Both the position numbers and the translations under genes were made by a program. A stretch of DNA of 64,000 nucleotides from an uncultured Lentisphaerota bacterium (GTDB lineage Bacteria; Verrucomicrobiota; Kiritimatiellia; RFP12; UBA1067), in NCBI GenBank assembly GCA_900320225.1, contig ONRL01000038.1, positions 5,698-69,697 of the forward strand, read 5' to 3'. The notes under the pieces are model-generated. The model saw nothing but the letters and a program-made list of their open reading frames with translations. It did no database searches and was not told the DNA's origin. Each line of letters begins with the position of its first letter. Within the stretch, counting starts at the first letter, position 1. Positions 5,255 to 51,112 of this stretch are shown here, one piece after another.

Positions 5255-5307
5255 CAAGTAGGAACGTGTAAAAACGTCAAGTAGACAGGTGCAAAATCTA
5301 CAAGTAG
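5255..5307. repeat. Three CAAGTAG direct repeats at 23-bp spacing (iteron or operator-like)
   Basis: CAAGTAG at 5255, 5278 and 5301, directly upstream of the ATPase start (5201, minus strand). Confidence 0.5.
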
Positions 5308-5654
5308 GCGACATCTCAATTAGAACATCATCTCGCGAATCGGTCTCAATCGCCACTAAAAATGCCCCAAAAATCAGACTTGTTTTACCCCCCAGTTTTG
5401 TATTCATGTCCATACATCAGGTGGATGTCCCCTGTGTACGCGACATCACTTAAATAGCAATAATCGAAGTTGCCGGCAATGTAAATGACATTTTGCGAGG
5501 ATTGGATTGCAAATGAGATTACGGCGCGGAACAACTATTTCCTCTCTCTGCCCCCCAGAGCAAAAAACTTGGGAAGACCGGTTGTGAAACTTGGACTTCG
5601 GGAAGTGCCCGAAGCAAAGAAGAACGCCGGTTGGAACAGGAAAGGAAAAGAAAA

Positions 5655-20570: not shown

Positions 20571-20664
20571 AAACGGCACTAACTGGGAAAACGGCCATAT
20601 TGGAGGCTGAAAAGGCGAGATAGGTGTTGGTGAGATTACGGTGCGGAACGGTCGAGCCTTCAAC

Positions 20665-20689
20665 GGGAGGGCCGCGCTCCTGCGCGGCC
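20665..20689. repeat. H2 hairpin repeat
   Basis: GGGAGG-GCCGCGC-TCCT-GCGCGGC, intergenic. Confidence 0.9.
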
Positions 20690-20744
20690 GCCCGGCGCGA
20701 GGTGCGCCAGTGAGATTATGGTGCGGAACGGTCGAGCCTTCAAC

Positions 20745-20769
20745 GGGAGGGCCGCGCTCCTGCGCGGCC
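20745..20769. repeat. H2 hairpin repeat
   Basis: Identical to 20665..20689 (second unit of the 80-bp tandem repeat). Confidence 0.9.
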
Positions 20770-20832
20770 GCCCGGCGTAAGGTGCGCCGGTGAGATTATG
20801 GTGCGGAACGGTATGAAAGAAAGGATAATAAA

Positions 20833-22500
20833 ATGAGAACAGGACAAATTGGGTGGCGGTCTGTTGTTGTGGCCGCTGGATGCGGCATGATGGCATTGGG
20901 TGCCATTTCGGGAACGGTCGAAACGACGCCCGTTGCCCGGATGGAACTGCGTGCGAAGGGCGAGATCCGGAAACGCGATCCGGGCATCTTCGGCGACTAC
21001 TGGTGGGCCAACCGCTTCCTGAACCACCGCGAGCAGGTCGCGCGCCTCAACGGACGGCCGGTGGACGTGGTTCTCGTGGGCGATTCCATCATGCACTACT
21101 GGGAGTGGCGGCACCTCGCGAAGTGGTCCGCGTTGACGAACGGCCGGACGGTCCTCAACCTCGGCTACGCAGGCGACCGCACGCAGCACGTCCTCTGGCG
21201 CATCGAGCACGGCGAACTGGATGGGTTCACGGCGAAGAACGTCGTCCTCATGATCGGTACGAACAACAACTCCTCTGACAATACCGACCCCGCCAACGTC
21301 GCCAAGGCCATTGAGGAGATCATCGCGCGGATCCGCGAAAAGCAGCCCGGCGCGCAGATCATCCTCCATCCCATCTTTCCGCGCGGCGCGTCCGCCGACT
21401 CGAAGCGCCACGCCGCCGCGCGCGCGCGGAACGACAGGACGAACGTTCTCCTGAAGGAATTCGCCGCCGCGCACCCCGAGGTCACATGGGTGGACTTCAA
21501 CGACAAGCTGGTCGATTCGACGGGTTGGGTGCCGCGCACGATCATGGCGGACGAGATCCATCCGACCGACGCCGGCTACGACCTCTGGCTGGAGGCGCTC
21601 CTGCCGCATCTGCGCGACGACCGCGTGCCGCTGGCGGATCCGTTCATCCTGTACGAGAAGGGAACCTACTACGCCTACGGCACCCATTCGCGCGTCGGCA
21701 TCACCGTGGCGACGTCCACGGACCTCGTGCATTGGAAGATGGACCAGGGGCGGTCCAAGGACGGGCTGGCGCTTCATATGGACGATTCGTTTGGGACGAA
21801 GTTCTTCTGGGCGCCGGAGGTCTACCGCGTGGACGGACGGTACGTGATGTACTACTCCGCCGAGACGCACGTGTGCGCGGCGACGGCGGACAGTCCGCTC
21901 GGCCCGTTCCGTCAGGCGGAGAAGAAGCCCATCCTCGAACGGCGCGGCATCGACAACTCGCTCTTCATCGACGACGACGGGCGGACATGGATGGTGTACG
22001 TGCACTTCGACAAGGGGAACGTCGTCTGGCTAACGGAGATGGAGAAGGACGGTCTGCACGCCAAGCCCGGCACGGCCCGTATGGTGCTGCGCGCCGAGAA
22101 GGGGTGGGAGATGATGAATCCGCGCTGCTCCGTCACGGAAGGTCCGTTCATCGTCAAGATCGGCGGCACGTATGTGCTCACCTATTCCGCGAACGACTAC
22201 CGCGACCGCGACTACGCCGTGGGCGTGGCGACGGCGCGGAGCCTCGAGGGGCCGTGGACGAAGTACGCCGGCAACCCGATCCTCCGTCGGCGCTTCGGCC
22301 TCGTGGGCGTGGGGCACCACTCCCTGTTCAAGGATGCGGACGGCAAGTGGCGGATCGTGTTCCATGCGCACAACGGCGGGGGCAAGGACACCATCCATCC
22401 TCGCTGCATGTACATCGCCGGGATTGACTTCAAGGCGGTGGACGGCGTGCCGGTGCCGGTTGTGGACGACAACCTTATCCGTTGCGTGGACACGCATTAA
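20833..22500 (+). CDS. Fusion protein: SGNH/GDSL esterase domain + glycoside hydrolase family 43-like domain
   Basis: The N-terminal half has VVLVGDSIMHYW (GDS block), ..GYAGDRT.., ..IGTNN.. and ..DEIHPTDAGYD.. (DxxH). The C-terminal half has ..DPFILYEKGTYYAYGT.., ..FWAPEVYRVDGRYVMYYSA.. and ..TEGPFIVKIGGTYVLTYSAND.., typical of GH43 five-bladed propellers. Confidence 0.8.
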   Translation: MRTGQIGWRSVVVAAGCGMMALGAISGTVETTPVARMELRAKGEIRKRDPGIFGDYWWANRFLNHREQVARLNGRPVDVVLVGDSIMHYWEWRHLAKWSALTNGRTVLNLGYAGDRTQHVLWRIEHGELDGFTAKNVVLMIGTNNNSSDNTDPANVAKAIEEIIARIREKQPGAQIILHPIFPRGASADSKRHAAARARNDRTNVLLKEFAAAHPEVTWVDFNDKLVDSTGWVPRTIMADEIHPTDAGYDLWLEALLPHLRDDRVPLADPFILYEKGTYYAYGTHSRVGITVATSTDLVHWKMDQGRSKDGLALHMDDSFGTKFFWAPEVYRVDGRYVMYYSAETHVCAATADSPLGPFRQAEKKPILERRGIDNSLFIDDDGRTWMVYVHFDKGNVVWLTEMEKDGLHAKPGTARMVLRAEKGWEMMNPRCSVTEGPFIVKIGGTYVLTYSANDYRDRDYAVGVATARSLEGPWTKYAGNPILRRRFGLVGVGHHSLFKDADGKWRIVFHAHNGGGKDTIHPRCMYIAGIDFKAVDGVPVPVVDDNLIRCVDTH

Positions 22501-28256: not shown

Positions 28257-28367
28257 AGTTTTTGATCTCGCGCGCATGAAACGGCAGGAAGAAATGTTGC
28301 AAAAAGGTGTCAGACGGCACACGTGCCGCGGCCTAACACAGATGAATTGGTAAACAGGAGACGAGCC

Positions 28368-28793
28368 ATGAACAACATCCGAATCATCTACATGGTTGTG
28401 CTGGCCCTTGTGGGCTCGGCCGCCTTTGCCGATACCTACCGCGACGCGATGGGGCGCAACCGCGGCACCTCGACCACGGATCGCTACGGCAAGACGACCT
28501 ACCGCGACTCCATGGGGCGCACCCAGGGAACGTCCTCCACGGACCGTTACGGCAAGACGACCTTCCGCGACGCGATGGGCCGCAATCAGGGGAGCGCCTC
28601 CACGGACAGTTACGGCAAGACGACGTTCCGCGACTCGATGGGGCGCACGACTGGTACGGCCACGACGGACAGCTACGGCAAGACAACTTATCGCGACTCG
28701 ATGGGCCGTGTGACATGCACGGCCACGAAGGACAGCTCCGGCAAAATCACCTATCGCGACGCAATGGGCCGTACGATCGGCACCCAGAAATAA
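28368..28793 (+). CDS. Small secreted protein made of ~6 tandem 20-aa repeats (YD-repeat-like)
   Basis: Start MNNIRIIYMVVLALVGSAAFA, then TYRDxMGRxxGTxxTDxYGK repeated with a 60-nt period. Confidence 0.75.
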   Translation: MNNIRIIYMVVLALVGSAAFADTYRDAMGRNRGTSTTDRYGKTTYRDSMGRTQGTSSTDRYGKTTFRDAMGRNQGSASTDSYGKTTFRDSMGRTTGTATTDSYGKTTYRDSMGRVTCTATKDSSGKITYRDAMGRTIGTQK

Positions 28794-28839: not shown

Positions 28840-29547
28840 ATGAAAAAGTGGACAGTTGCAACTTTCAGGGCCGCGAAGGGCGTGCGCAAGCTTGGCTGCT
28901 GCACGGCGTACGACGCGTGCTTCGCGCGCCTGGCCGATGAGGCGGGCGTGCCGTGCATCCTCGTGGGCGACTCGATGGGCATGGTGTCGCTCGGCTACGC
29001 CACCACGCTTCCCGTGTCGATGCAGGAGACGCTCTCCGCCACGGCCGCCGTGGCGCGCGCGGCGAACTGCCTGAAGGCGGGCGCGGACGGCGTGAAGCTC
29101 GAGGGCGGCGCGCGCGTGTGCGGGCTCATCCGCCGCATGACCGAGGCCGGCATTCCCGTGCTCGCGCACGTGGGCATGACGCCGCAGAGCGTGAACGCCT
29201 ACGGCGGCTTCAAGACGCAGGGCAAGACGCGCGAGGCCGCGCTGCAGGTACTCGAGAACGCGAAGGCCGTGGAGGCCGCGGGCGCGTTCGCCGTCACGCT
29301 CGAGTGCGTGCCGGACGAGCTGGCCGCGGAGATCACCGCTGCGTTGAAGATCCCAACGGTCGGCATCGGCGCAGGGCCCGTGTGCGACGCGCAGTGGCTC
29401 GTGATGCATGACCTCCTCGGCCTCAACGAGGGGCACGTGCCGTCGTTCGTCAAGCGGTACGCGAACCTCGCCGCCGACGCGAAGAAGGCCTTCGCGCAGT
29501 ACGTGGACGAAGTCGCGTCCGGCACCTTCCCCCCGCCCCGGCGGTGA
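28840..29547 (+). CDS. panB: 3-methyl-2-oxobutanoate hydroxymethyltransferase (PanB), with an internal ~25-aa gap relative to canonical PanB
   Basis: ..CTAYDACFARLADEAGVPCILVGDSMGMV.., ..GVKLEGG.., ..HVGMTPQS.., ..LECVP.. and ..IGIGAG.. are collinear with E. coli PanB as I recall it. The ..LLxADxPFxSY.. segment is missing. Confidence 0.85.
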   Translation: MKKWTVATFRAAKGVRKLGCCTAYDACFARLADEAGVPCILVGDSMGMVSLGYATTLPVSMQETLSATAAVARAANCLKAGADGVKLEGGARVCGLIRRMTEAGIPVLAHVGMTPQSVNAYGGFKTQGKTREAALQVLENAKAVEAAGAFAVTLECVPDELAAEITAALKIPTVGIGAGPVCDAQWLVMHDLLGLNEGHVPSFVKRYANLAADAKKAFAQYVDEVASGTFPPPRR

Positions 29548-29548
29548 C

Positions 29549-31981
29549 ATGCGGCTTCTGGCGGCCATCTTGCTGACTGCTGGGACGGCGTTCGGCGCGA
29601 CGGACGTGACGTTCCTCATGTGCTACAGTCCGCAGATCCTCCGCTTCACGGCGGCGCATCCCGAAATCCGTCCGTTCAAGTGGGGCGGCCTCACCCTCCC
29701 CGGCGGCGGCGGACGCGCCGCGTTCATGCTCGCGCTCGCGGGCGGCACGGCGCCGGACGTCTACAAGGCCTGGTTCCACATCCTGCGCCACGACATCGAC
29801 GAGGGGTTCTGCCATCCGCTCAACGAATGGCTCGGCGACGACGCGGACGGCGACGGCAAGCTCTCCGACGCCGAAGCGAAGTGGCCCGGCTGGAAGGACG
29901 TGCCGCAGCTCTGGCGTGACGTGGCGACGAAGGAGGGCAAGGTCTATGCCGTCCCCACGCCCGGCTTCGCCTATTACGGCATCGTCTACCGCAAGGACCT
30001 CGTGAAGGCGGCCGGCCTCGACCCCGAGAACCCGCCGCGCACGTGGGATGCGTTTGCCGACTGGTGCCGCAAGCTCACGTTCGCGGACAAGACGATCCCC
30101 GGTGCGACGGTGCAGCGCGGCCAGCGCGCGTTCGCGATCGAGAACCGTCCCTGGGGTTTCCTGCCGTGGGTGGGCGCGGCCGGCGGAGATGTGATTAGAA
30201 TGGGGAACGGGGAACGGGGAACGGGGAACGGGGAACGGGGAATGGGGAATGGGGAACAAACCTGGGAGGCGTGCTTTGATTCGCCGGAGTGTTTGCGCGC
30301 GGCGAAGTTTCTGCAGGGGCTGATCGCGGACGGCGTCGTGCGCGCGCTGCCGCAGCTTTCGATGTCGAACGAGGTCGCGGACATGTTCGTGAACGGCGAG
30401 ATCGTGAGCGTGTTCGGCGGCGAGGATCTCGTGGTGTACCTCACGGAACGGCTCAATTTCCCGTCCGAGCAGATCGGTCTCATGCCGTTTCCGGCGGCGG
30501 ACGAGAACTGTCGTCCGGTGCTTCAGGCGCACAAACACTTTTACGCGATGACGGAAGGCGTGGGGCGGCGTCCGAAAGAGGAGCGCGACGCGGTGTGGGC
30601 GTGCGTGGAGCAACTTGCGTCCGGCGAGGTATATGACGAGACGGTGCGCAAGAACGTGGCGGAGGGTCGTGCGCGGTGGTGTCTGCCGGCCGACCTCAAG
30701 CGCCTCGGTTTCGACGAACACCTCGCGGAGGTGCCGCCCGGCATCCGCCAGATGTACGACGACCTCGCGGCGGGTCGCATCCGCGCGGTGACGGAGCCGT
30801 ACATGGGGTTCTGGCAGGCGGCGAGCGATCTCGTGAGCCGTCGGTTCCTCGGCATCCTCCTCAGCGACGCGGGAAAGGACCTCGACTGCGCCGCCGCGCT
30901 GAAGTCGATCTCGGACGACGCGAACCGCGGGCTTATGTTCGATGCGGACAAGGAGCGCATTGAAAAGGCGCGTCCCGTGGCGCGCGTGGTGCTCGGCGTG
31001 CTGGTGATCTGCGTGCTCGCGTGTGTCTGGCTCGTCATCAAAGCGGGAGGGTCGCGCTCCTGCGCGACCGAAAAGTCGGGAGGGTCGTGCTTGTCGCGAC
31101 CTCTGAGTCGGCGGTTGCTCCCTTGGCTCTTTCTTTTACCCGCGATCGTTTCCATCGCGCTGTGGAGCTACTGGCCGCTCGTGCGCGGCGCGCTGATGGC
31201 GTTCCAGGACTACCGCATCGTGGGCGCGGGCACGTGGGAGGGGCTGGACAACTTCATCCGCGTGGCGTCCGACCCCGGCTTCTGGAAGGCGTGGGGGCGC
31301 ACGCTCCAGTACGTCGTGATCACGCTTGCGCTCGGATTCGTCTCGCCGATCATCCTCGCCTTGTTGCTGAGCGAGATTCCGCGCGGGAAGGTGTTCTTCC
31401 GCACGGTCTACTTCCTGCCGCATCTCACGAGCGCGCTCGTGGTCACGCTCATGTGGAAGATGATGTTCGATCCCACGGAGAACGGCATGCTCAACCAGGC
31501 GCTCGCGTGGTTCGGCGTGGGACGGCACGCCTGGCTGCAGGATCCGGCGTGGGCGATGACGTGCTGCATCCTGCCGGGCGTGTGGGCGGGGATGGGCACG
31601 GCGTCGCTGATCTACATCGCGGCGCTCGGGTCGCTGCCGCCGGACTACTACGAGGCGGCGGCGATCGACGGCGCGGGCATCTTCGCGCGTTTCCGGCACG
31701 TGACGCTGCCGCAGCTCCTGCCGCTCATGGTGATCAACTTCGTGGGCGCGTTCATCGCGGCGTTCCAGGGCATGGGATCGATCTTCCTCCTCACCTTCGG
31801 CGGACCGGGCGACGCGACGAACGTGCTCTCGCTCGTGATCTGGAAGGAGGCCTACAACAACCTGCGCTTCTCCACGGCCACGACGATGGCGTGGTTTCTC
31901 GGCACCGCCCTCATCGCGTTCACGTACCTCCAGATACGTTTCCTCCGCCGTGTCGAGTTCCGCCAGGCCGCCGCGAACTGA
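29549..31981 (+). CDS. Fusion: ABC-transporter solute-binding domain + TM linker + MalF/UgpA-type permease domain
   Basis: ATG at 29549 (MRLLAAILLTAGTAFGA signal). An SBP-like ~480 aa is followed by a TM helix (VVLGVLVICVLACVWLVI), a linker containing two H2 repeats, and a six-TM permease with the EAA motif (YEAAAIDGAGIFARFRHVTLPQL). Confidence 0.75.
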   Translation: MRLLAAILLTAGTAFGATDVTFLMCYSPQILRFTAAHPEIRPFKWGGLTLPGGGGRAAFMLALAGGTAPDVYKAWFHILRHDIDEGFCHPLNEWLGDDADGDGKLSDAEAKWPGWKDVPQLWRDVATKEGKVYAVPTPGFAYYGIVYRKDLVKAAGLDPENPPRTWDAFADWCRKLTFADKTIPGATVQRGQRAFAIENRPWGFLPWVGAAGGDVIRMGNGERGTGNGERGMGNGEQTWEACFDSPECLRAAKFLQGLIADGVVRALPQLSMSNEVADMFVNGEIVSVFGGEDLVVYLTERLNFPSEQIGLMPFPAADENCRPVLQAHKHFYAMTEGVGRRPKEERDAVWACVEQLASGEVYDETVRKNVAEGRARWCLPADLKRLGFDEHLAEVPPGIRQMYDDLAAGRIRAVTEPYMGFWQAASDLVSRRFLGILLSDAGKDLDCAAALKSISDDANRGLMFDADKERIEKARPVARVVLGVLVICVLACVWLVIKAGGSRSCATEKSGGSCLSRPLSRRLLPWLFLLPAIVSIALWSYWPLVRGALMAFQDYRIVGAGTWEGLDNFIRVASDPGFWKAWGRTLQYVVITLALGFVSPIILALLLSEIPRGKVFFRTVYFLPHLTSALVVTLMWKMMFDPTENGMLNQALAWFGVGRHAWLQDPAWAMTCCILPGVWAGMGTASLIYIAALGSLPPDYYEAAAIDGAGIFARFRHVTLPQLLPLMVINFVGAFIAAFQGMGSIFLLTFGGPGDATNVLSLVIWKEAYNNLRFSTATTMAWFLGTALIAFTYLQIRFLRRVEFRQAAAN
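30202..30257 (+). repeat. Heptanucleotide microsatellite (GGGGAAY) x 8 inside a CDS
   Basis: Eight contiguous units (five GGGGAAC, two GGGGAAT, one GGGGAAC) encode ..MGNGERGTGNGERGMGNGE... Confidence 0.95.
31045..31069. repeat. H2 hairpin repeat (variant arms)
   Basis: GGGAGG-GTCGCGC-TCCT-GCGCGAC, inside the SBP-permease linker (..GGSRSCAT..). Confidence 0.85.
31078..31101. repeat. H2-like hairpin repeat (variant)
   Basis: GGGAGG-GTCGTGC-TTGT-CGCGACC, 8 nt after the previous copy, inside the same linker (..GGSCLSRP..). Confidence 0.7.
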
Positions 31982-32159: not shown

Positions 32160-33398
32160 ATGCACAAACCTGAAATACTCGCGCCGGCGGGGGACATGAC
32201 GTGTCTGCAGGCCGCGCTTGACGCGGGGGCGGACGCCGTGTATCTCGGGCTTGAGGCCTTCAACATGCGCGCGCGGGCTTCCGCGAACCTCACGCGCGCC
32301 GAGCTGCCCGAGGCGTCGCGCCGGTGCCGCGAACGGGGCGTGAAGCTCTACCTCGTCCTCAACACGATCGTGTTCGAGGACGAGCTGGCGGCGGTGGAGG
32401 ACATGATCCTTTTCGCGAAACCCTACGCCGACGCGTTCATCGTCTCGGACTGGGGCGTGATCGCGCTCTGCCGCAAGCACGGCGTGGCGTTCCACGTCTC
32501 CACGCAGATGAGCTGCTCCAACTCATCGGCGGCTACATTCCTCAAGGCGCAGGGCGCGTCACGCGTGGTGCTCGCCCGCGAATGCACGCTTGCCGAGGCG
32601 GCGCGGATTGCGAAAACGGCGGGCATCGAAATCGAGACGTTCGTGCACGGCGCGCAGTGCGTGGCGGAAAGCGGTCGCTGTCTGCTCTCGCACGACGCCT
32701 ACGGCTGCAGCGCGAACCGGGGCGAGTGCCACCAGCCGTGTCGACGCCGGTTCCTCGTGAAGGCGATCGACCGCTTCACGGACAAGGACGGCAACCCGAT
32801 CCACGACGCGGACGCCGAATTCACGGTGGAGCCGCATACGGTCCTCTCCGCGAAGGACCTCTGCTCGCTGCCGTTCGTGGACAAGCTGATGGCGGCGGGG
32901 ATCGCGAGCTTCAAGATCGAGGGGCGCGCGCGGAACGCCAACTACGTGAAGACCGTGACCGAGGCGTACCGCGAAGCGGTGGACGCCGTGGCGGACGGCA
33001 CGTTCACGCCCGAACTGGCCGAGCGGCTCGTGGAGAAGACGAAGACGGTGTTCCACCGCGAGTTCTCCACGGGGCTCTACTTCGGGCGTCCGGGCGCTGA
33101 CCAGTTCACGGACGCGGAGGACTCCGCGGCGAAGACGGTGAAGCGCCACGTGGGCGTGGTGATCGACTATTTCCTCAAGGCGCGGATCGCGCAGGTGAAG
33201 ATCCAGGACCATTCGGTGCGCGTGGGCGACGTGCTGCAGGTACACGGCCCCACCACGGGCGTGCAGGAGTTCCCCGTCGCCTCCCTCCGTCGTGACGACG
33301 AGGTGCCGGAGGTGGCCGAGAAGGGTACGTGGGTCACGTTCCCCGCGCCCCGTTGCCGCGTGGGCGACAAGGTTTTCTTCGTCGAGCGCAAAGGGTGA
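32160..33398 (+). CDS. Peptidase U32 family protein
   Basis: MHKPEILAPAGDMTCLQAALDAGADAVYLG.., ..VKLYLVLNTIV.. and ..ETFVHGAQCVAESGRCLLS.. are typical of U32 (YhbU/RlhA-like) proteins. Confidence 0.85.
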   Translation: MHKPEILAPAGDMTCLQAALDAGADAVYLGLEAFNMRARASANLTRAELPEASRRCRERGVKLYLVLNTIVFEDELAAVEDMILFAKPYADAFIVSDWGVIALCRKHGVAFHVSTQMSCSNSSAATFLKAQGASRVVLARECTLAEAARIAKTAGIEIETFVHGAQCVAESGRCLLSHDAYGCSANRGECHQPCRRRFLVKAIDRFTDKDGNPIHDADAEFTVEPHTVLSAKDLCSLPFVDKLMAAGIASFKIEGRARNANYVKTVTEAYREAVDAVADGTFTPELAERLVEKTKTVFHREFSTGLYFGRPGADQFTDAEDSAAKTVKRHVGVVIDYFLKARIAQVKIQDHSVRVGDVLQVHGPTTGVQEFPVASLRRDDEVPEVAEKGTWVTFPAPRCRVGDKVFFVERKG

Positions 33399-33987: not shown

Positions 33988-35220
33988 ATGGCAGTTAAGA
34001 AAGTCGCGTTTCTGACGGCCGGCGGCCTCGCGCCGTGCCTCAGTTCCTCGATCGGGTTCCTGATCGACGCCTACACGAAGACGGCGCCGGACGTGGAGAT
34101 GATCGGTTACATCAACGGCTACATGGGCCTCCTGAAGGGCGAGTCCATCCCCGTGACGCCGGAGGTCCGCAAGAACGCCCTCATCCTCACGCAGCATGGC
34201 GGCAGCCCGATCGGCAACAGCCGCGTGAAGCTTACGAACGTGAAGGACTGCGTGAAGCGCGGCCTCGTGAAGGAAGGCGAGGACCCGCTCAAGGTGGCGG
34301 CCGACCAGCTCGTGAAGGACGGCGTGGACGTGCTGCACACGATCGGCGGCGACGACACGAACACGACGGCGGCGGATCTCGCGGCCTACCTTGCGAAGAA
34401 CAACTACAAGCTGATCGTGGTGGGCCTCCCGAAGACGATCGACAACGACGTCTACCCGATCAAGCAGTCCCTCGGCGCCTACACGGCGGCGGAGGAGGGC
34501 GCGCAGTTCTTCGCCAACGTCGTGAAGGAGAACAGCGCCAACCCGCGCTCGCTCATCATCCACGAGGTCATGGGCCGCAACTGCGGCTGGCTCACGGCGT
34601 TCACCGCGATCTACTATACCCGCATGCTCAAGCGCCGCATCAAGTTCCTGCCGGAGTTCGGCCTCACCCGCGAGCGCCAGTCGATCCACGCGGTGTACGT
34701 GCCCGAGTCGCGCGTCAACTTCGCGTCCGAGGCCGAGCGCCTGCGCAAGGTCATGGACAAGTACGACTGCGTGAACATCTTCGTGAGCGAAGGCGCCTGC
34801 GTGAAGGAGATCATCAAGGAGATGAAGAAGCGCGGCGAGGACGTCCCGATGGACGCCTTCGGCCACCCGCGCCTCGACAAGGTGAACGTGGGCCAGTGGT
34901 TCGCGAAGCGCTTCGGCGAACTTCTGGGCGCGGAGAAGACCCAGGTGTTCAAGAGCGGCTACTACGCCCGCTCGGCCGCGCCGTGCAAGAAGGACCTCGA
35001 TTTGATCAAGGCCTGCGCCGAGAAGGCCGTCGAGTGCGCCCTCGCGGGCGTCGGCGGCGTCGTGGGCAAGGACGAGGAGAACCACAACGAGCTTCGCGCG
35101 TGCGAGTTCGACCGCATCAAGGGCGGCAAGCCCTTCAACGTGCGCAACTCGCGCTTCCGCAAGCTGCTGTCCGCCATCGGCCAGCCGCGCCCGCGCAAGA
35201 CCCGCGTTGTGAAGAAGTAA
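33988..35220 (+). CDS. pfp: Pyrophosphate-dependent 6-phosphofructokinase (PfkA family, PPi type)
   Basis: ..FLTAGGLAPCLSS.., ..IGGDDTNT.. (Asp instead of Gly) and ..LPKTIDNDV.. (Lys instead of Gly) are the residues associated with PPi dependence. ..MGRNCGWL.. also present. Confidence 0.85.
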   Translation: MAVKKVAFLTAGGLAPCLSSSIGFLIDAYTKTAPDVEMIGYINGYMGLLKGESIPVTPEVRKNALILTQHGGSPIGNSRVKLTNVKDCVKRGLVKEGEDPLKVAADQLVKDGVDVLHTIGGDDTNTTAADLAAYLAKNNYKLIVVGLPKTIDNDVYPIKQSLGAYTAAEEGAQFFANVVKENSANPRSLIIHEVMGRNCGWLTAFTAIYYTRMLKRRIKFLPEFGLTRERQSIHAVYVPESRVNFASEAERLRKVMDKYDCVNIFVSEGACVKEIIKEMKKRGEDVPMDAFGHPRLDKVNVGQWFAKRFGELLGAEKTQVFKSGYYARSAAPCKKDLDLIKACAEKAVECALAGVGGVVGKDEENHNELRACEFDRIKGGKPFNVRNSRFRKLLSAIGQPRPRKTRVVKK

Positions 35221-35925: not shown

Positions 35926-36726
35926 ATGACAGGCATCGAAAGACTGCATTCCATCATGGTCCGTCTCCGCGATCCGGAGACGGGCTGTCCGTGGGACCGC
36001 GTGCAGACGCTGTCTTCCCTCAAGCCCTGTCTGCTGGAGGAGACGTACGAGCTCCTGTCGGCGATGGACCGCCCGGAGGACCGCGCGAACTACGTGGAGG
36101 AGCTCGGCGACGTGCTTCTCCAGATCATGTTCCAGTGCGTCATGGCCGAGCAGGAGGGGACCTTCTCGTTCGACGACGTGGCAAACGCGATCTCGGACAA
36201 GCTCGTCCGCCGCCATCCGCACGTGTTCGGCGACGTCGTGGCGAAAGACCCCGCGACCGTTCTGAAGAACTGGGAGCAGATCAAGCAGCAGGAGCACAAG
36301 AAGGAGACGCGGCACAGCGCGCTCGACGGCGTGCCCGCCGCGCTTCCCGCGCTCCTGAAGGCCCAGCGCACGGCCGAGAAGGCCGCGCGCGTGGGCTTCG
36401 ACTGGAAGGACGCCTCCGGCGTGGTCGACAAGGTCAACGAGGAACTCGGCGAATTGCGCGAGGCCGTGGCCGAACGCGCGAGCGAGAACCCGGAAGATTC
36501 CGTCCACGTGAAGGAGGAACTGGGCGACCTGCTCTTCGCCGTCACCAACTACGCGCGCCACCTCAAAGTGGACGCCGAGAGCGCGCTCGAGGGCACCACC
36601 GCGAAGTTCGCGCGGCGCTTCCGCGCCGTCGAGGCTGCCGCGAAGGCGCAGGGACGCGACCTCAAGTCGATGACGCTCGCCGAGATGGACGCGCTGTGGG
36701 AAGCGGCGAAGAAAGATGAAAGTTGA
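35926..36726 (+). CDS. mazG: Nucleoside triphosphate pyrophosphohydrolase MazG
   Basis: ..CPWDRVQTLSSLKPCLLEETYEL.., ..EELGDVLLQI.., ..RRHPHVF.. and a second EELGDLLF repeat give the tandem MazG-domain layout. Confidence 0.9.
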   Translation: MTGIERLHSIMVRLRDPETGCPWDRVQTLSSLKPCLLEETYELLSAMDRPEDRANYVEELGDVLLQIMFQCVMAEQEGTFSFDDVANAISDKLVRRHPHVFGDVVAKDPATVLKNWEQIKQQEHKKETRHSALDGVPAALPALLKAQRTAEKAARVGFDWKDASGVVDKVNEELGELREAVAERASENPEDSVHVKEELGDLLFAVTNYARHLKVDAESALEGTTAKFARRFRAVEAAAKAQGRDLKSMTLAEMDALWEAAKKDES

Positions 36727-37585
36727 GGTCATAGAGCCTCATGGTTTTTGCATGGGTGTGAGGACGGCCGTCGAGAAAGCCTCTCGCACCCTTTCGCTTT
36801 CTTCTGGGAAGGCCGTTTACTGCCTCCACGAACTCGTGCACAACGAGCAGGTCGTGGCGGACCTGAAGGCGCGGGGTCTGCGGTTCGTGGAGTCGCTGGA
36901 CGAGGTGCCCGACGGCGCGACCGTGCTGTTCAGCGCGCACGGCGTGGCGCTTGCGGTGCGCGCGGAGGCGCAGCGGCGGGAGCTCGCGGTGGTGGATGCG
37001 ACGTGTCCGTTCGTGGCGCGCGCGCACCGCGCCGTGCGCGATTTCGCCGCGCGCGGCGTGCCGGTGGTCGTGGTGGGGCGGCCCGAGCACGCGGAAGTGC
37101 GCGGCGTGATGGGGGCGTGCGACGGCGCGCGCGTTGTCAGCACGCCGGAAGAAGTGGCGGCGTTGCCTTTCCCCGATGGCCCCGTGGGGGTTGTGTGCCA
37201 GACGACATTGTCGTCTGGGACCGTACGTACCGTGCTGGACGCGTTGCGCGCGCGCTATCCGCATCTGGAGACGCCTCCGGCGGCAGACGTCTGCACCGCG
37301 ACGCGCGATCGGCAGCGCGCGGTGGCGGACTTCGTGTGCGGCGGCGGCGACGGCGTGCTCGTGCTTGGCAGCATAGGCAGCTCGAACACGAACCGGCTCG
37401 TGGAGGTCGCCCGGGCGGCGGGTGCCGCGTTCGCGGCGCGGGCGGGGACGCTTGAGGAGATACGTGCGCTTGATTTCGCGGGCGTACGCCGCCTCGGCGT
37501 CACGGCGGGCGCATCCACCCCCGAGGATTTCTTCCGATGTGCCGTCGCCGCGCTTAATGGGCAGCGGAAGGGTTCGCGTGTCTGA
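36716..37585 (+). CDS. ispH: 4-hydroxy-3-methylbut-2-enyl diphosphate reductase
   Basis: ..GFCMGVRTAV.., ..HELVHN.., ..SAHGV.., ..DATCPFV.., ..VCQTT.. and ..GSSNTNRL.. are IspH/LytB hallmark blocks including the three Cys ligands. Confidence 0.9.
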   Translation: MKVEVIEPHGFCMGVRTAVEKASRTLSLSSGKAVYCLHELVHNEQVVADLKARGLRFVESLDEVPDGATVLFSAHGVALAVRAEAQRRELAVVDATCPFVARAHRAVRDFAARGVPVVVVGRPEHAEVRGVMGACDGARVVSTPEEVAALPFPDGPVGVVCQTTLSSGTVRTVLDALRARYPHLETPPAADVCTATRDRQRAVADFVCGGGDGVLVLGSIGSSNTNRLVEVARAAGAAFAARAGTLEEIRALDFAGVRRLGVTAGASTPEDFFRCAVAALNGQRKGSRV

Positions 37586-37666: not shown

Positions 37667-37742
37667 GCGAGCTTAACTCAGTTGGTAGAGTGCCACCTTG
37701 CCAAGGTGGTTGTCGAGGGTTCGAGTCCCTTAGCTCGCTCCA
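37667..37742 (+). tRNA. tRNA-Gly (anticodon GCC)
   Basis: Manual cloverleaf: acceptor GCGAGCT/AGCTCGC, D arm ACTC..GAGT, anticodon arm CCACC-TTGCCAA-GGTGG, T arm GAGGG-TTCGAGT-CCCTT, encoded CCA. Confidence 0.9.
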
Positions 37743-37768
37743 TTCATGGGGTTGTGGAAGCCGTGAAT

Positions 37769-37844
37769 GGGAGCATAGCTCAGCTGGTAGAGCAAGTGAC
37801 TCTTAATCACTGGGTCGTGGGTTCGAATCCCTCTGCTCCTACCA
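37769..37844 (+). tRNA. tRNA-Lys (anticodon CTT)
   Basis: Acceptor GGGAGCA/TGCTCCT (G-U at 1:72), D arm GCTC..GAGC, anticodon arm AGTGA-CTCTTAA-TCACT, T loop TTCGAAT (one T-stem mismatch), encoded CCA. Confidence 0.85.
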
Positions 37845-37859
37845 TTCATAAGCGGTTGC

Positions 37860-37935
<76 letters not shown>

Positions 37936-50946: not shown

Positions 50947-51036
50947 GGAGAGGTGGCAGAGCCTGGTTGAATGCACATGACTCGAAATCATGCATACCGC
51001 AAGGTATCGGGGGTTCGAATCCCTCCCTCTCCGCCA
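50947..51036 (+). tRNA. tRNA-Ser (anticodon CGA)
   Basis: Acceptor GGAGAGG/CCTCTCC, anticodon arm CATGA-CTCGAAA-TCATG, long variable arm (ATACC-GCAA-GGTAT), T loop TTCGAAT, encoded CCA. Confidence 0.9.
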
Positions 51037-51038
51037 AG

Positions 51039-51112
51039 GCGGGCGTAATTCAATGGCAGAATAGGAGCTTCCCAAGCTTCTTACGTGGGTTCGATTCCCA
51101 TCGCCCGCTCCA
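51039..51112 (+). tRNA. tRNA-Gly (anticodon CCC)
   Basis: Acceptor GCGGGCG/CGCCCGC, D arm ATTC..GAAT, anticodon arm GGAGC-TTCCCAA-GCTTC, T arm GTGGG-TTCGATT-CCCAT, encoded CCA. A T-run follows. Confidence 0.9.

Follow-up and report, generated by a model that had tools for sequence, protein, structure and literature searches.

In Haemophilus influenzae, heptanucleotide tracts that cause frameshifts lie inside genes, with (AATTTTG)14 found inside hmw1a and (AACAACC)8-13 inside a homologue of HI1369 (PMC2651432). The current study concerns a tract of this kind in a 64,000-nucleotide (nt) stretch of DNA, hereafter the window, from an uncultured rumen bacterium (contig ONRL01000038.1), where eight GGGGAAC or GGGGAAT units (together GGGGAAY) lie within a gene that fuses a substrate-binding protein (SBP) to the permease of an ATP-binding cassette (ABC) importer. 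As in H. influenzae, a 7-nt unit is located in an open reading frame (ORF), unit numbers differ between strains and frameshifted alleles consistent with slippage occur. Unlike the H. influenzae tracts, this array resides in an uncultured rumen commensal, in the gene of a nutrient importer rather than a surface or restriction-modification gene, and is positioned at codon 218 of 810; furthermore, in-frame (ON) alleles strongly predominate over frameshifted (OFF) ones, in-frame three-unit variants form the main class of variation, and the sequence of the unit varies even from one close strain to another.

G-rich heptamers have been described in Xanthomonas (GGGAATC) and Nostoc (GGGGA(C/T)T), together with tandem heptanucleotides in cyanobacteria, and those of Xanthomonas and Nostoc form G-quadruplexes (G4) in vitro, are mostly intergenic and occur in convergent pairs (PMC4692102). 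The arrays studied here resemble them in their G-rich 7-nt units with G4 potential, in the many arrays found across the clade, in the large copy-number differences between close relatives and in convergent inverted array pairs (here at loci L137, L124, L015, L125 and L008, where L numbers denote loci and P numbers database protein products). In contrast to those arrays, which are mostly intergenic and under-represented in ORFs, the array of the window is translated, and the clade to which it belongs uses many units with no single dominant one. As relayed in two later papers, a 2007 survey found heptamers to be the commonest class of long simple sequence repeats (SSRs) in many bacteria, and the length of 7 nt has been suggested to correspond to the stretch of DNA that the polymerase holds (PMC4679880, PMC4692102). 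The same excess is seen here, period 7 being by far the commonest in 1.13 Mb of clade DNA, although the survey, as it is represented there, was a genome census while the present case is one of array turnover at a single codon position. Direct repeats of the heptamer TAACTGA occur in marine Beggiatoaceae and in some cyanobacteria and Bacteroidetes; they differ from the present arrays in having one fixed unit, stops in the forward orientation, a proposed regulatory role and no described ON/OFF alleles (PMC4679880). What they share with them is the placement of heptamer arrays near gene starts or ends and an occasional translation, in the stop-free orientation, as 7-amino-acid (aa) repeats.

Covalent fusions of substrate-binding and transmembrane domains are known from ABC importers of Gram-positive bacteria, such as GlnPQ and OpuA. 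The protein of the window likewise joins its binding domain to a permease, whereas its SBP is of the CUT1 type and oligosaccharide-like, is N-terminal and is connected through an extra transmembrane (TM) helix, and the gene stands alone. Our literature search found no paper connecting Kiritimatiellae and heptamers. Intragenic heptanucleotide SSRs as such are known; this case is unusual in its turnover of unit types at one codon and in coming from an uncultured commensal of the rumen.

An in-frame array within a binding-protein domain

The features needed to describe the tract are as follows, all on the forward strand.

29549 to 31981 (+): gene for the 810-aa SBP-permease fusion (ORF, Pfam, NCBIfam, database product P0001)
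29696 to 30502 (+): SBP_bac_1 domain (Pfam PF01547, aa 50-318)
30194 to 30265 (+): complete hypervariable insert of 72 nt, IRMGNGERGTGNGERGMGNGEQTW, bounded by the invariant flanks GAAGGDV and EACFDSPE
30202 to 30257 (+): heptanucleotide array (GGGGAAC)5(GGGGAAT)2(GGGGAAC)1 (sequence, Tandem Repeats Finder (TRF), pattern counts)

The array spans 56 nt. In the register that starts at 30200 it reads ATGGGGA, then five times ACGGGGA and twice ATGGGGA; the codon at 30200 begins ATG, and the frame through the tract (ORF 29408 to 31981) translates to MGNGERGTGNGERGMGNGEQ. TRF reports 30198 to 30257 with period 7, 8.6 copies, 94% matches and a score of 99, the top score among the short-unit repeats (period up to 23) of the window, within which the tract is also the only strong heptamer array. 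When the pattern GGGGAACGGGGAAC was sought with up to two mismatches, nine matches were obtained in the window, seven of them inside the tract, against an expectation of 0.8, and none of 100 shuffles gave nine. Rfam contains no family overlapping the tract. An earlier note, made from the sequence alone, had placed eight in-frame 7-nt units inside the SBP domain, and the sequence, the TRF copy number and the ORF reading confirm this, the tract covering aa 219-237 of 810 and thus falling within SBP_bac_1.

Concerning the structural setting of the repeat, an AlphaFold2 (AF2) model of the SBP domain (aa 17-467) was obtained from 26 alignment rows that included homologues of 47-69% identity, with a mean predicted local distance difference test score (pLDDT) of 77.8 and a predicted template modelling score of 0.81. 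In this model, residues 221-235 lie between beta strands at aa 216-219 and 238-241 and have a pLDDT below 50, against 81-95 in the adjacent blocks, consistent with a beta-hairpin whose tip is a disordered loop encoded by the array. The closest folds retrieved by Foldseek are oligosaccharide-binding SBPs (7c6v, 5f7v, 5ci5, 1eu8). A full-length AF2 model based on 17 close homologues reached a pLDDT of only 42.7 and was discarded.

The consequences of unit gain and loss were simulated. The earlier note had proposed that a change of one or two units in either direction would frameshift the gene, and all such changes yielded products of 238-262 aa, ending in TNLGGVL or in KPGRRALIRRSVCARRSFCRG before the stop codon; natural frameshifted alleles on near-identical backgrounds (L140 and L141, described below) bear the proposal out.

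Allelic variation of the insert among relatives

The flanks GAAGGDV[IV]R and WEACFDSPE do not vary among 120 homologues (78-100% identity), but what lies between them differs greatly in both length and sequence; at the DNA level the inserts of relatives range from 18 to 159 nt (72 nt in the window). For the DNA comparison, 134 loci were fetched by peptide patterns outside the repeat and the DNA between two anchors was then excised; since the retrieval patterns lie outside the repeat, this sample of loci is independent of ORF calls. More distant relatives (60-75% DNA identity) possess a short non-repeat turn such as VRRRADGSW, whereas in the rumen clade the site holds heptanucleotide arrays built from at least seven different units.

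ACGGGGA/ATGGGGA: window, L135, L001, L041, L007
CCACGAA: L002, L055, L136, L137
CACCAAG: L008, L061
GTTAAGA/GTGAAGA: L058, L045
GGAAGAG: L060
ATGTCGA: L003, L023, L056
GTGACGA: L059
ATGCAGA: L005

Even in the cluster whose flanks are 87-100% identical to those of the window, five quite different inserts are found, and these do not sort by flank similarity. The insert of L137 is itself an inverted pair, of about five GTTCGTG units followed by fifteen AACCACG units. Locus L045 equals L058 with three additional ATGGGGA units, the aligned segments being identical at 199 of 200 and 96 of 99 nt, and comparison of the two sequences shows the birth of a GGGGAAT array from GTGGGGAATGG. The same pair differs by a deletion of 75-76 nt (boundary base ambiguous) in L045 (RUG10884; region 1700 to 2000) relative to L058; this deletion, approximately 400 nt downstream of the array, is frameshifting and lies at no repeat.

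Unit number also changes between relatives, as the comparison of strains and metagenome-assembled genomes (MAGs) proposed in the earlier note revealed: GGGGAAY arrays of 4, 5, 6, 8 and 14 units occur among close strains, the window, L135 and P0124 having eight each. The CCACGAA-type inserts measure 51, 72, 75, 93, 120 and 159 nt, with steps of about three units. Three explanations of this diversity were considered and dropped: a diversity-generating retroelement, as the variation is in length and repeat units and not in A-to-N substitution; an assembly artefact, as the arrays are reproduced in independent assemblies (for example L003/L023/L056 and window/L135); and contamination with telomere-like or ciliate repeats, as these have another unit and a conserved ORF surrounds the tract.

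To assess the reading frame without ORF bias, 92 loci were employed (89 with both anchors, and L135-L137), at least 23 of which carry arrays of at least 3.5 units. In every one of the 92 the insert length is divisible by three and the frame is equal on both sides. At the protein level, inserts of 8-10, 17 and 24 aa are the most frequent; the length is 17 or 24 aa in alleles with GGGGAAY units and 15, 22 or 33 aa in those with GTGAAGA units. The length step is therefore 7 aa, that is 21 nt or three units, and the in-frame alleles of 5, 8 and 14 units agree with the earlier suggestion that a three-unit change is a 7-aa length variant. In an intergenic array with identical flanks, L087 differs from L099 and L120 by a single unit, so one-unit steps do occur where the frame is irrelevant. 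Selection to keep the frame would explain why three-unit steps dominate in the gene, and we infer that selection for the ON state is strong.

OFF alleles were sought with the 255-aa simulated truncated product as query, by which short N-terminal products were recovered and their DNA was then read; a 123-aa query carrying the predicted OFF tail yielded 63 candidates with no OFF allele among them. L140 has four units in a 44-nt insert, and its product P0125 ends in GMGNKPGRRVSTLRSVCVRRSFCRG before the stop, the predicted out-of-frame tail, while 425 codons remain open downstream in another frame to the end of the contig. Compared with L001, which has five units and is ON, L140 shows no mismatch over 2,837 nt and one 7-nt gap. 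L141 is OFF with six units in a 58-nt insert and 269 open codons downstream to the contig end; it stands 56 nt (eight units) apart from L146, which is ON with 14 units, and the flanks of the two are 100% and 99.6% identical. Furthermore, L147 is OFF by virtue of a CCACGAA array in an 89-nt insert, with 466 downstream codons open to the contig end. The GGGGAAY series accordingly runs 4 OFF, 5 ON, 6 OFF, 8 ON and 14 ON, which fits a rule by which the unit number of in-frame alleles would equal 2 modulo 3. Natural ON and OFF alleles are thus produced at this site, with ON strongly predominant and slippage as the probable mechanism, and the stumps encoded by the OFF alleles have presumably lost function.

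Other disrupted alleles were encountered at the hairpin in lineages without an array. In L143 (1024 to 1056) an AAG to TAG nonsense change truncates the protein after VRR; P0172 has a 16-nt deletion between GGCGG direct repeats at the hairpin; and in L145 (375 to 2077) the gene ends with IRCQVPA, followed by an rve-family transposase. As the search was aimed at products of that length, no hot spot can be deduced from the concentration of disrupted alleles at the hairpin. Contig-end or misjoin errors may account for L142, which has an in-frame TAG in a long array at the end of its contig, and for P0122, P0159, P0160, P0158 and P0180, which are deletion or chimeric products; none of these was scored as an SSR OFF allele. 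P0158, P0180, P0166 and P0175 match the SBP as far as an array and then run on into another protein, for instance the C-terminus of an SNF2-type helicase, which reflects either like arrays at other loci or assembler misjoins at arrays.

The hairpin is not the only array site of the gene. A second hot spot corresponds to the extra TM helix and cytoplasmic linker.

30953 to 31120 (+): extra TM helix and cytoplasmic linker (no array in the window; array hot spot in relatives)

Linker arrays are present in L008, L010, L015, L059-L062, L065, L116, L117 and L119. Some share their units with the hairpin site of other strains (CCACGAA, CACCAAG), and the linker sometimes holds inverted partner arrays (AGTGCTT ... 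ACCAAGC). All 126 informative loci are in frame at this second site.

Arrays of at least 3.5 copies were also counted by TRF over the 1.13 Mb of clade DNA (all loci and the window), where period 7 accounts for 99, periods 8 and 9 for 20 each and period 6 for 5. In the 809 kb of flanks outside the gene the counts are 35 for period 7 and 8, 9 and 4 for periods 8, 9 and 6, and these outside arrays are mostly intergenic or at gene ends, often as inverted pairs. The predominantly intergenic location expected of long SSRs is not that of the translated array of the window.

Competing accounts of the array

We regard the tract as a genuine coding microsatellite, prone to slippage, that occupies a permissive loop. 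The account that we favour, with a probability of roughly 0.7, joins the array, its in-frame reading, the 21-nt quantisation and the sister-lineage ON/OFF alleles on identical backgrounds: a hypermutable heptanucleotide microsatellite occupies a permissive surface loop of the SBP, slippage alters its length, three-unit changes persist and other changes switch the gene OFF. The loop would form the tip of the beta-hairpin; relatives without an array have a short R-x-x-A-D-G-x-W turn at this point. Slipped-strand mispairing, the likely mechanism, would add or remove 7-nt units. A change of three units (21 nt) would lengthen or shorten a disordered GNGERG[TM] loop by 7 aa, and such alleles would persist; as all three phases of the unit are translated, a three-unit change alters loop length only. 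Any other change would shift the frame and lead to a translation stop 8-21 codons later, leaving a stump of 238-262 aa without the C-terminal part of the SBP, the TM anchor or the permease, so that the transporter would be OFF. At the level of natural alleles, the mechanism put forward in the earlier note is supported.

Several observations weigh against this account. No OFF variant was seen for the 8-unit lineage of the window itself (window, L135, P0124), and OFF alleles are rare, having turned up only in the search aimed at them. All alleles derive from metagenome assemblies, in which a miscount of units in a contig cannot be formally excluded, a concern that is tempered by array lengths of 28-42 nt, far shorter than both the reads and the assembler k (87, 141). 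Simple local slippage does not explain the varied units at one site, the inverted pair of L137 or the use of one unit at two sites of the same gene, and an array born by gain of three units on a single copy, as between L058 and L045, must have passed through frameshifted intermediates or arisen in several steps. Against a reading of the tract as a classical contingency locus, moreover, stand the complete absence of out-of-frame loci from the unbiased sample (0/92), the many lineages with no array at the site and the fact that the tract is one case of a clade-wide heptamer excess.

These last points bear directly on the first alternative, that the tract is an adaptive contingency locus whose array is kept since reversible, stochastic ON/OFF switching benefits the lineage, for example by escape from phages or toxins or by saving cost when substrate is absent. 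We consider this doubtful. It is favoured by the ON/OFF alleles on identical backgrounds with an intact downstream ORF, by the recurrence of arrays at this codon in many lineages, by the other disrupted hairpin alleles (L143, P0172, L145) and by the precedent of intragenic heptanucleotide frameshift tracts in H. influenzae (PMC2651432). Of the features that define a phase-variable locus, three were found: (i) a repeat unit that is not a multiple of three inside an ORF, here eight copies of 7 nt, (ii) unit numbers that vary among close relatives, and (iii) ON and OFF alleles on otherwise identical backgrounds, here in sister lineages. A substantial OFF share in a surface or host-interaction gene was not, the gene encoding a periplasmic-type SBP with an inner-membrane permease. 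Contingency loci typically show mixed ON/OFF states, in contrast to the 0/92 OFF recorded here. The mid-gene position in a periplasmic nutrient-binding domain, the arrayless lineages, the second hot spot that is always in frame, the general and mostly intergenic occurrence of heptamer arrays in the clade and the ascertainment effect behind the hairpin clustering of disrupted alleles all argue in the same direction. With respect to the phase-variation switch proposed in the earlier note, natural ON/OFF alleles in sister lineages are indeed present, while the profile of a classical contingency locus is lacking (0/92 OFF, a mid-gene tract, a domain that is probably periplasmic).

A bolder proposal, which appears to us quite unlikely, holds that the hairpin codon and the linker are programmed hypervariable cassettes in which arrays, besides slipping locally, are actively seeded, replaced and inverted, through template switching, ectopic conversion between dispersed arrays or a similar mechanism, and that ON/OFF switching is adaptive in rumen Kiritimatiellae. 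If this were true, it would represent a contingency system in a non-pathogenic gut commensal, with low-frequency ON/OFF switching of an orphan SBP-permease.

A role for nucleic-acid structure, in which a G-quadruplex on the coding strand or in the mRNA would modulate transcription, translation speed or mRNA stability with the unit number tuning the effect, seems very improbable. The G4-N3 pattern noted earlier on the coding strand is present, with eight GGGG runs separated by 3-nt spacers, where the usual definition is at least four runs of at least three G separated by 1-7 nt. When G-quadruplexes are allowed, the ViennaRNA fold of the tract consists of two stacked quadruplexes of four layers each and has an energy of -61.3 kcal/mol; without them the value is -2.9 kcal/mol. 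The quadruplex thus stands at the level of the sequence motif and the calculated structure, and in Xanthomonas and Nostoc G-rich heptamers do form G4 in vitro (PMC4692102). At this codon, however, sister alleles have units incapable of forming G4 (CCACGAA, GTTAAGA and ATGTCGA, none of them G-rich, and CACCAAG) or no array, so that G4 potential belongs to this unit and not to the site, and multiples of four tracts are not conserved.

Equally little credence can be given to a selected peptide, that is, a loop diversified in length and sequence as in antigenic variation so as to change the interactions of the binding protein: the extreme turnover of insert types among genes with such similar flanks (87-100%, DNA) and the richness of all array peptides seen in polar, charged or glycine residues would suit it, but the loop is modelled as disordered, its sequence follows from the stop-free heptamer that happens to occupy the site, translated in three phases, the cytoplasmic linker and intergenic DNA contain the same units, and a periplasmic domain of a diderm would not be exposed to hosts or to most phages.

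Host gene, genomic setting and significance

The fusion encoded by the gene comprises, in order, a signal peptide, the SBP domain, the extra TM helix, the cytoplasmic linker and an ABC permease of the MalF/UgpA/AlgM1 type.

31373 to 31954 (+): BPD_transp_1 permease core with EAA loop (Pfam PF00528, aa 609-802)

The true start is likely the ATG at 29549 within ORF 29408 to 31981; it falls one base past the stop of panB, and the resulting 810-aa product equals P0001. NCBIfam gives UgpA/MalF-like matches below the equivalog cut-offs, and in a PDB profile search the permease matches AlgM1, MalF and SugA and the N-terminal half matches sugar SBPs. An SBP_bac_1 fold combined with a MalF/UgpA-type permease bearing an EAA loop is the composition of a CUT1-type ABC sugar importer. 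By its homologues and by sequencing runs, the source organism belongs with rumen and gut Kiritimatiellae MAGs. The window protein lacks, at aa 26-30 near the N-terminus of the SBP, approximately ten residues that nearly all relatives keep (CYRPDHPEDPxTKQIL in relatives, CYSPQIL in the window).

The gene is solitary, with no adjoining ATPase (nucleotide-binding domain) or second permease (transmembrane domain). Its neighbours are panB (28840 to 29547) and genes for a U32 peptidase (32160 to 33398), phosphofructokinase (33988 to 35220) and LytB/IspH (36716 to 37585), and they differ again in relatives (thioredoxin-like, VWA, PfkB). Other features of the window were recorded as follows.

20630 to 20812: 80-nt unit repeated 2.3 times (96% identity), apparently intergenic, upstream of the ORF starting at 20833
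28323 to 28793 (+): 156-aa ORF, hydrophobic at its N-terminus, that contains five tandem 21-aa repeats of TYRDSMGRxxGTxTTDSYGKT (63-nt period, 4.3-4.9 copies), and no Pfam match
37667 to 37932: tRNA cluster of three genes
50947 to 51109: tRNA cluster of two genes

At the gathering threshold, Rfam identified only those tRNAs in the window.

Heptamer arrays elsewhere in the clade include inverted pairs in which an array is followed by its approximate reverse complement (L124, 1563 to 1723; L015, 5212 to 5345; L125, 6668 to 6817; L110, 2732 to 2907; L137, 1909 to 2067). These sit directly after stop codons, upstream of the gene and once within a coding insert, and by analogy with the convergent Xanthomonas repeats they might fold into long hairpins. 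GGGGAAC-like arrays also appear in dozens of contigs from rumen metagenomes whose flanks are unrelated, and the IMG/VR viral contig L138 has an intergenic array of about eleven GGGGAAC units (5294 to 5349). The k-mer depth over the array is 40-60 times that of its flanks, and in some runs far higher. Many copies in this genome were rejected as the explanation, since the 31-mers occur in runs of many unrelated organisms; being shared with unrelated organisms and contigs, they render the depth uninformative on this MAG. Logan contigs (k=31) end within the array, and the 41-nt perfect run loops in the graph. Arrays of this kind interrupt or falsely join metagenome contigs and divide gene calls, a practical concern for the annotation of MAGs.

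What is known of SSR switches comes almost wholly from a few pathogens, while the present locus concerns a nutrient-transporter gene of an uncultured rumen bacterium of the Planctomycetes-Verrucomicrobia-Chlamydiae (PVC) group. Public assemblies contain the full allelic series, from arrayless genes through array birth and in-frame growth by three units to frameshifted twins that differ by units alone. The locus is thus a natural and well-replicated system for understanding how selection on the reading frame filters microsatellite mutation, and it is also suited to asking whether commensals use contingency-type switching and why 7-nt units dominate the long SSRs of bacteria.

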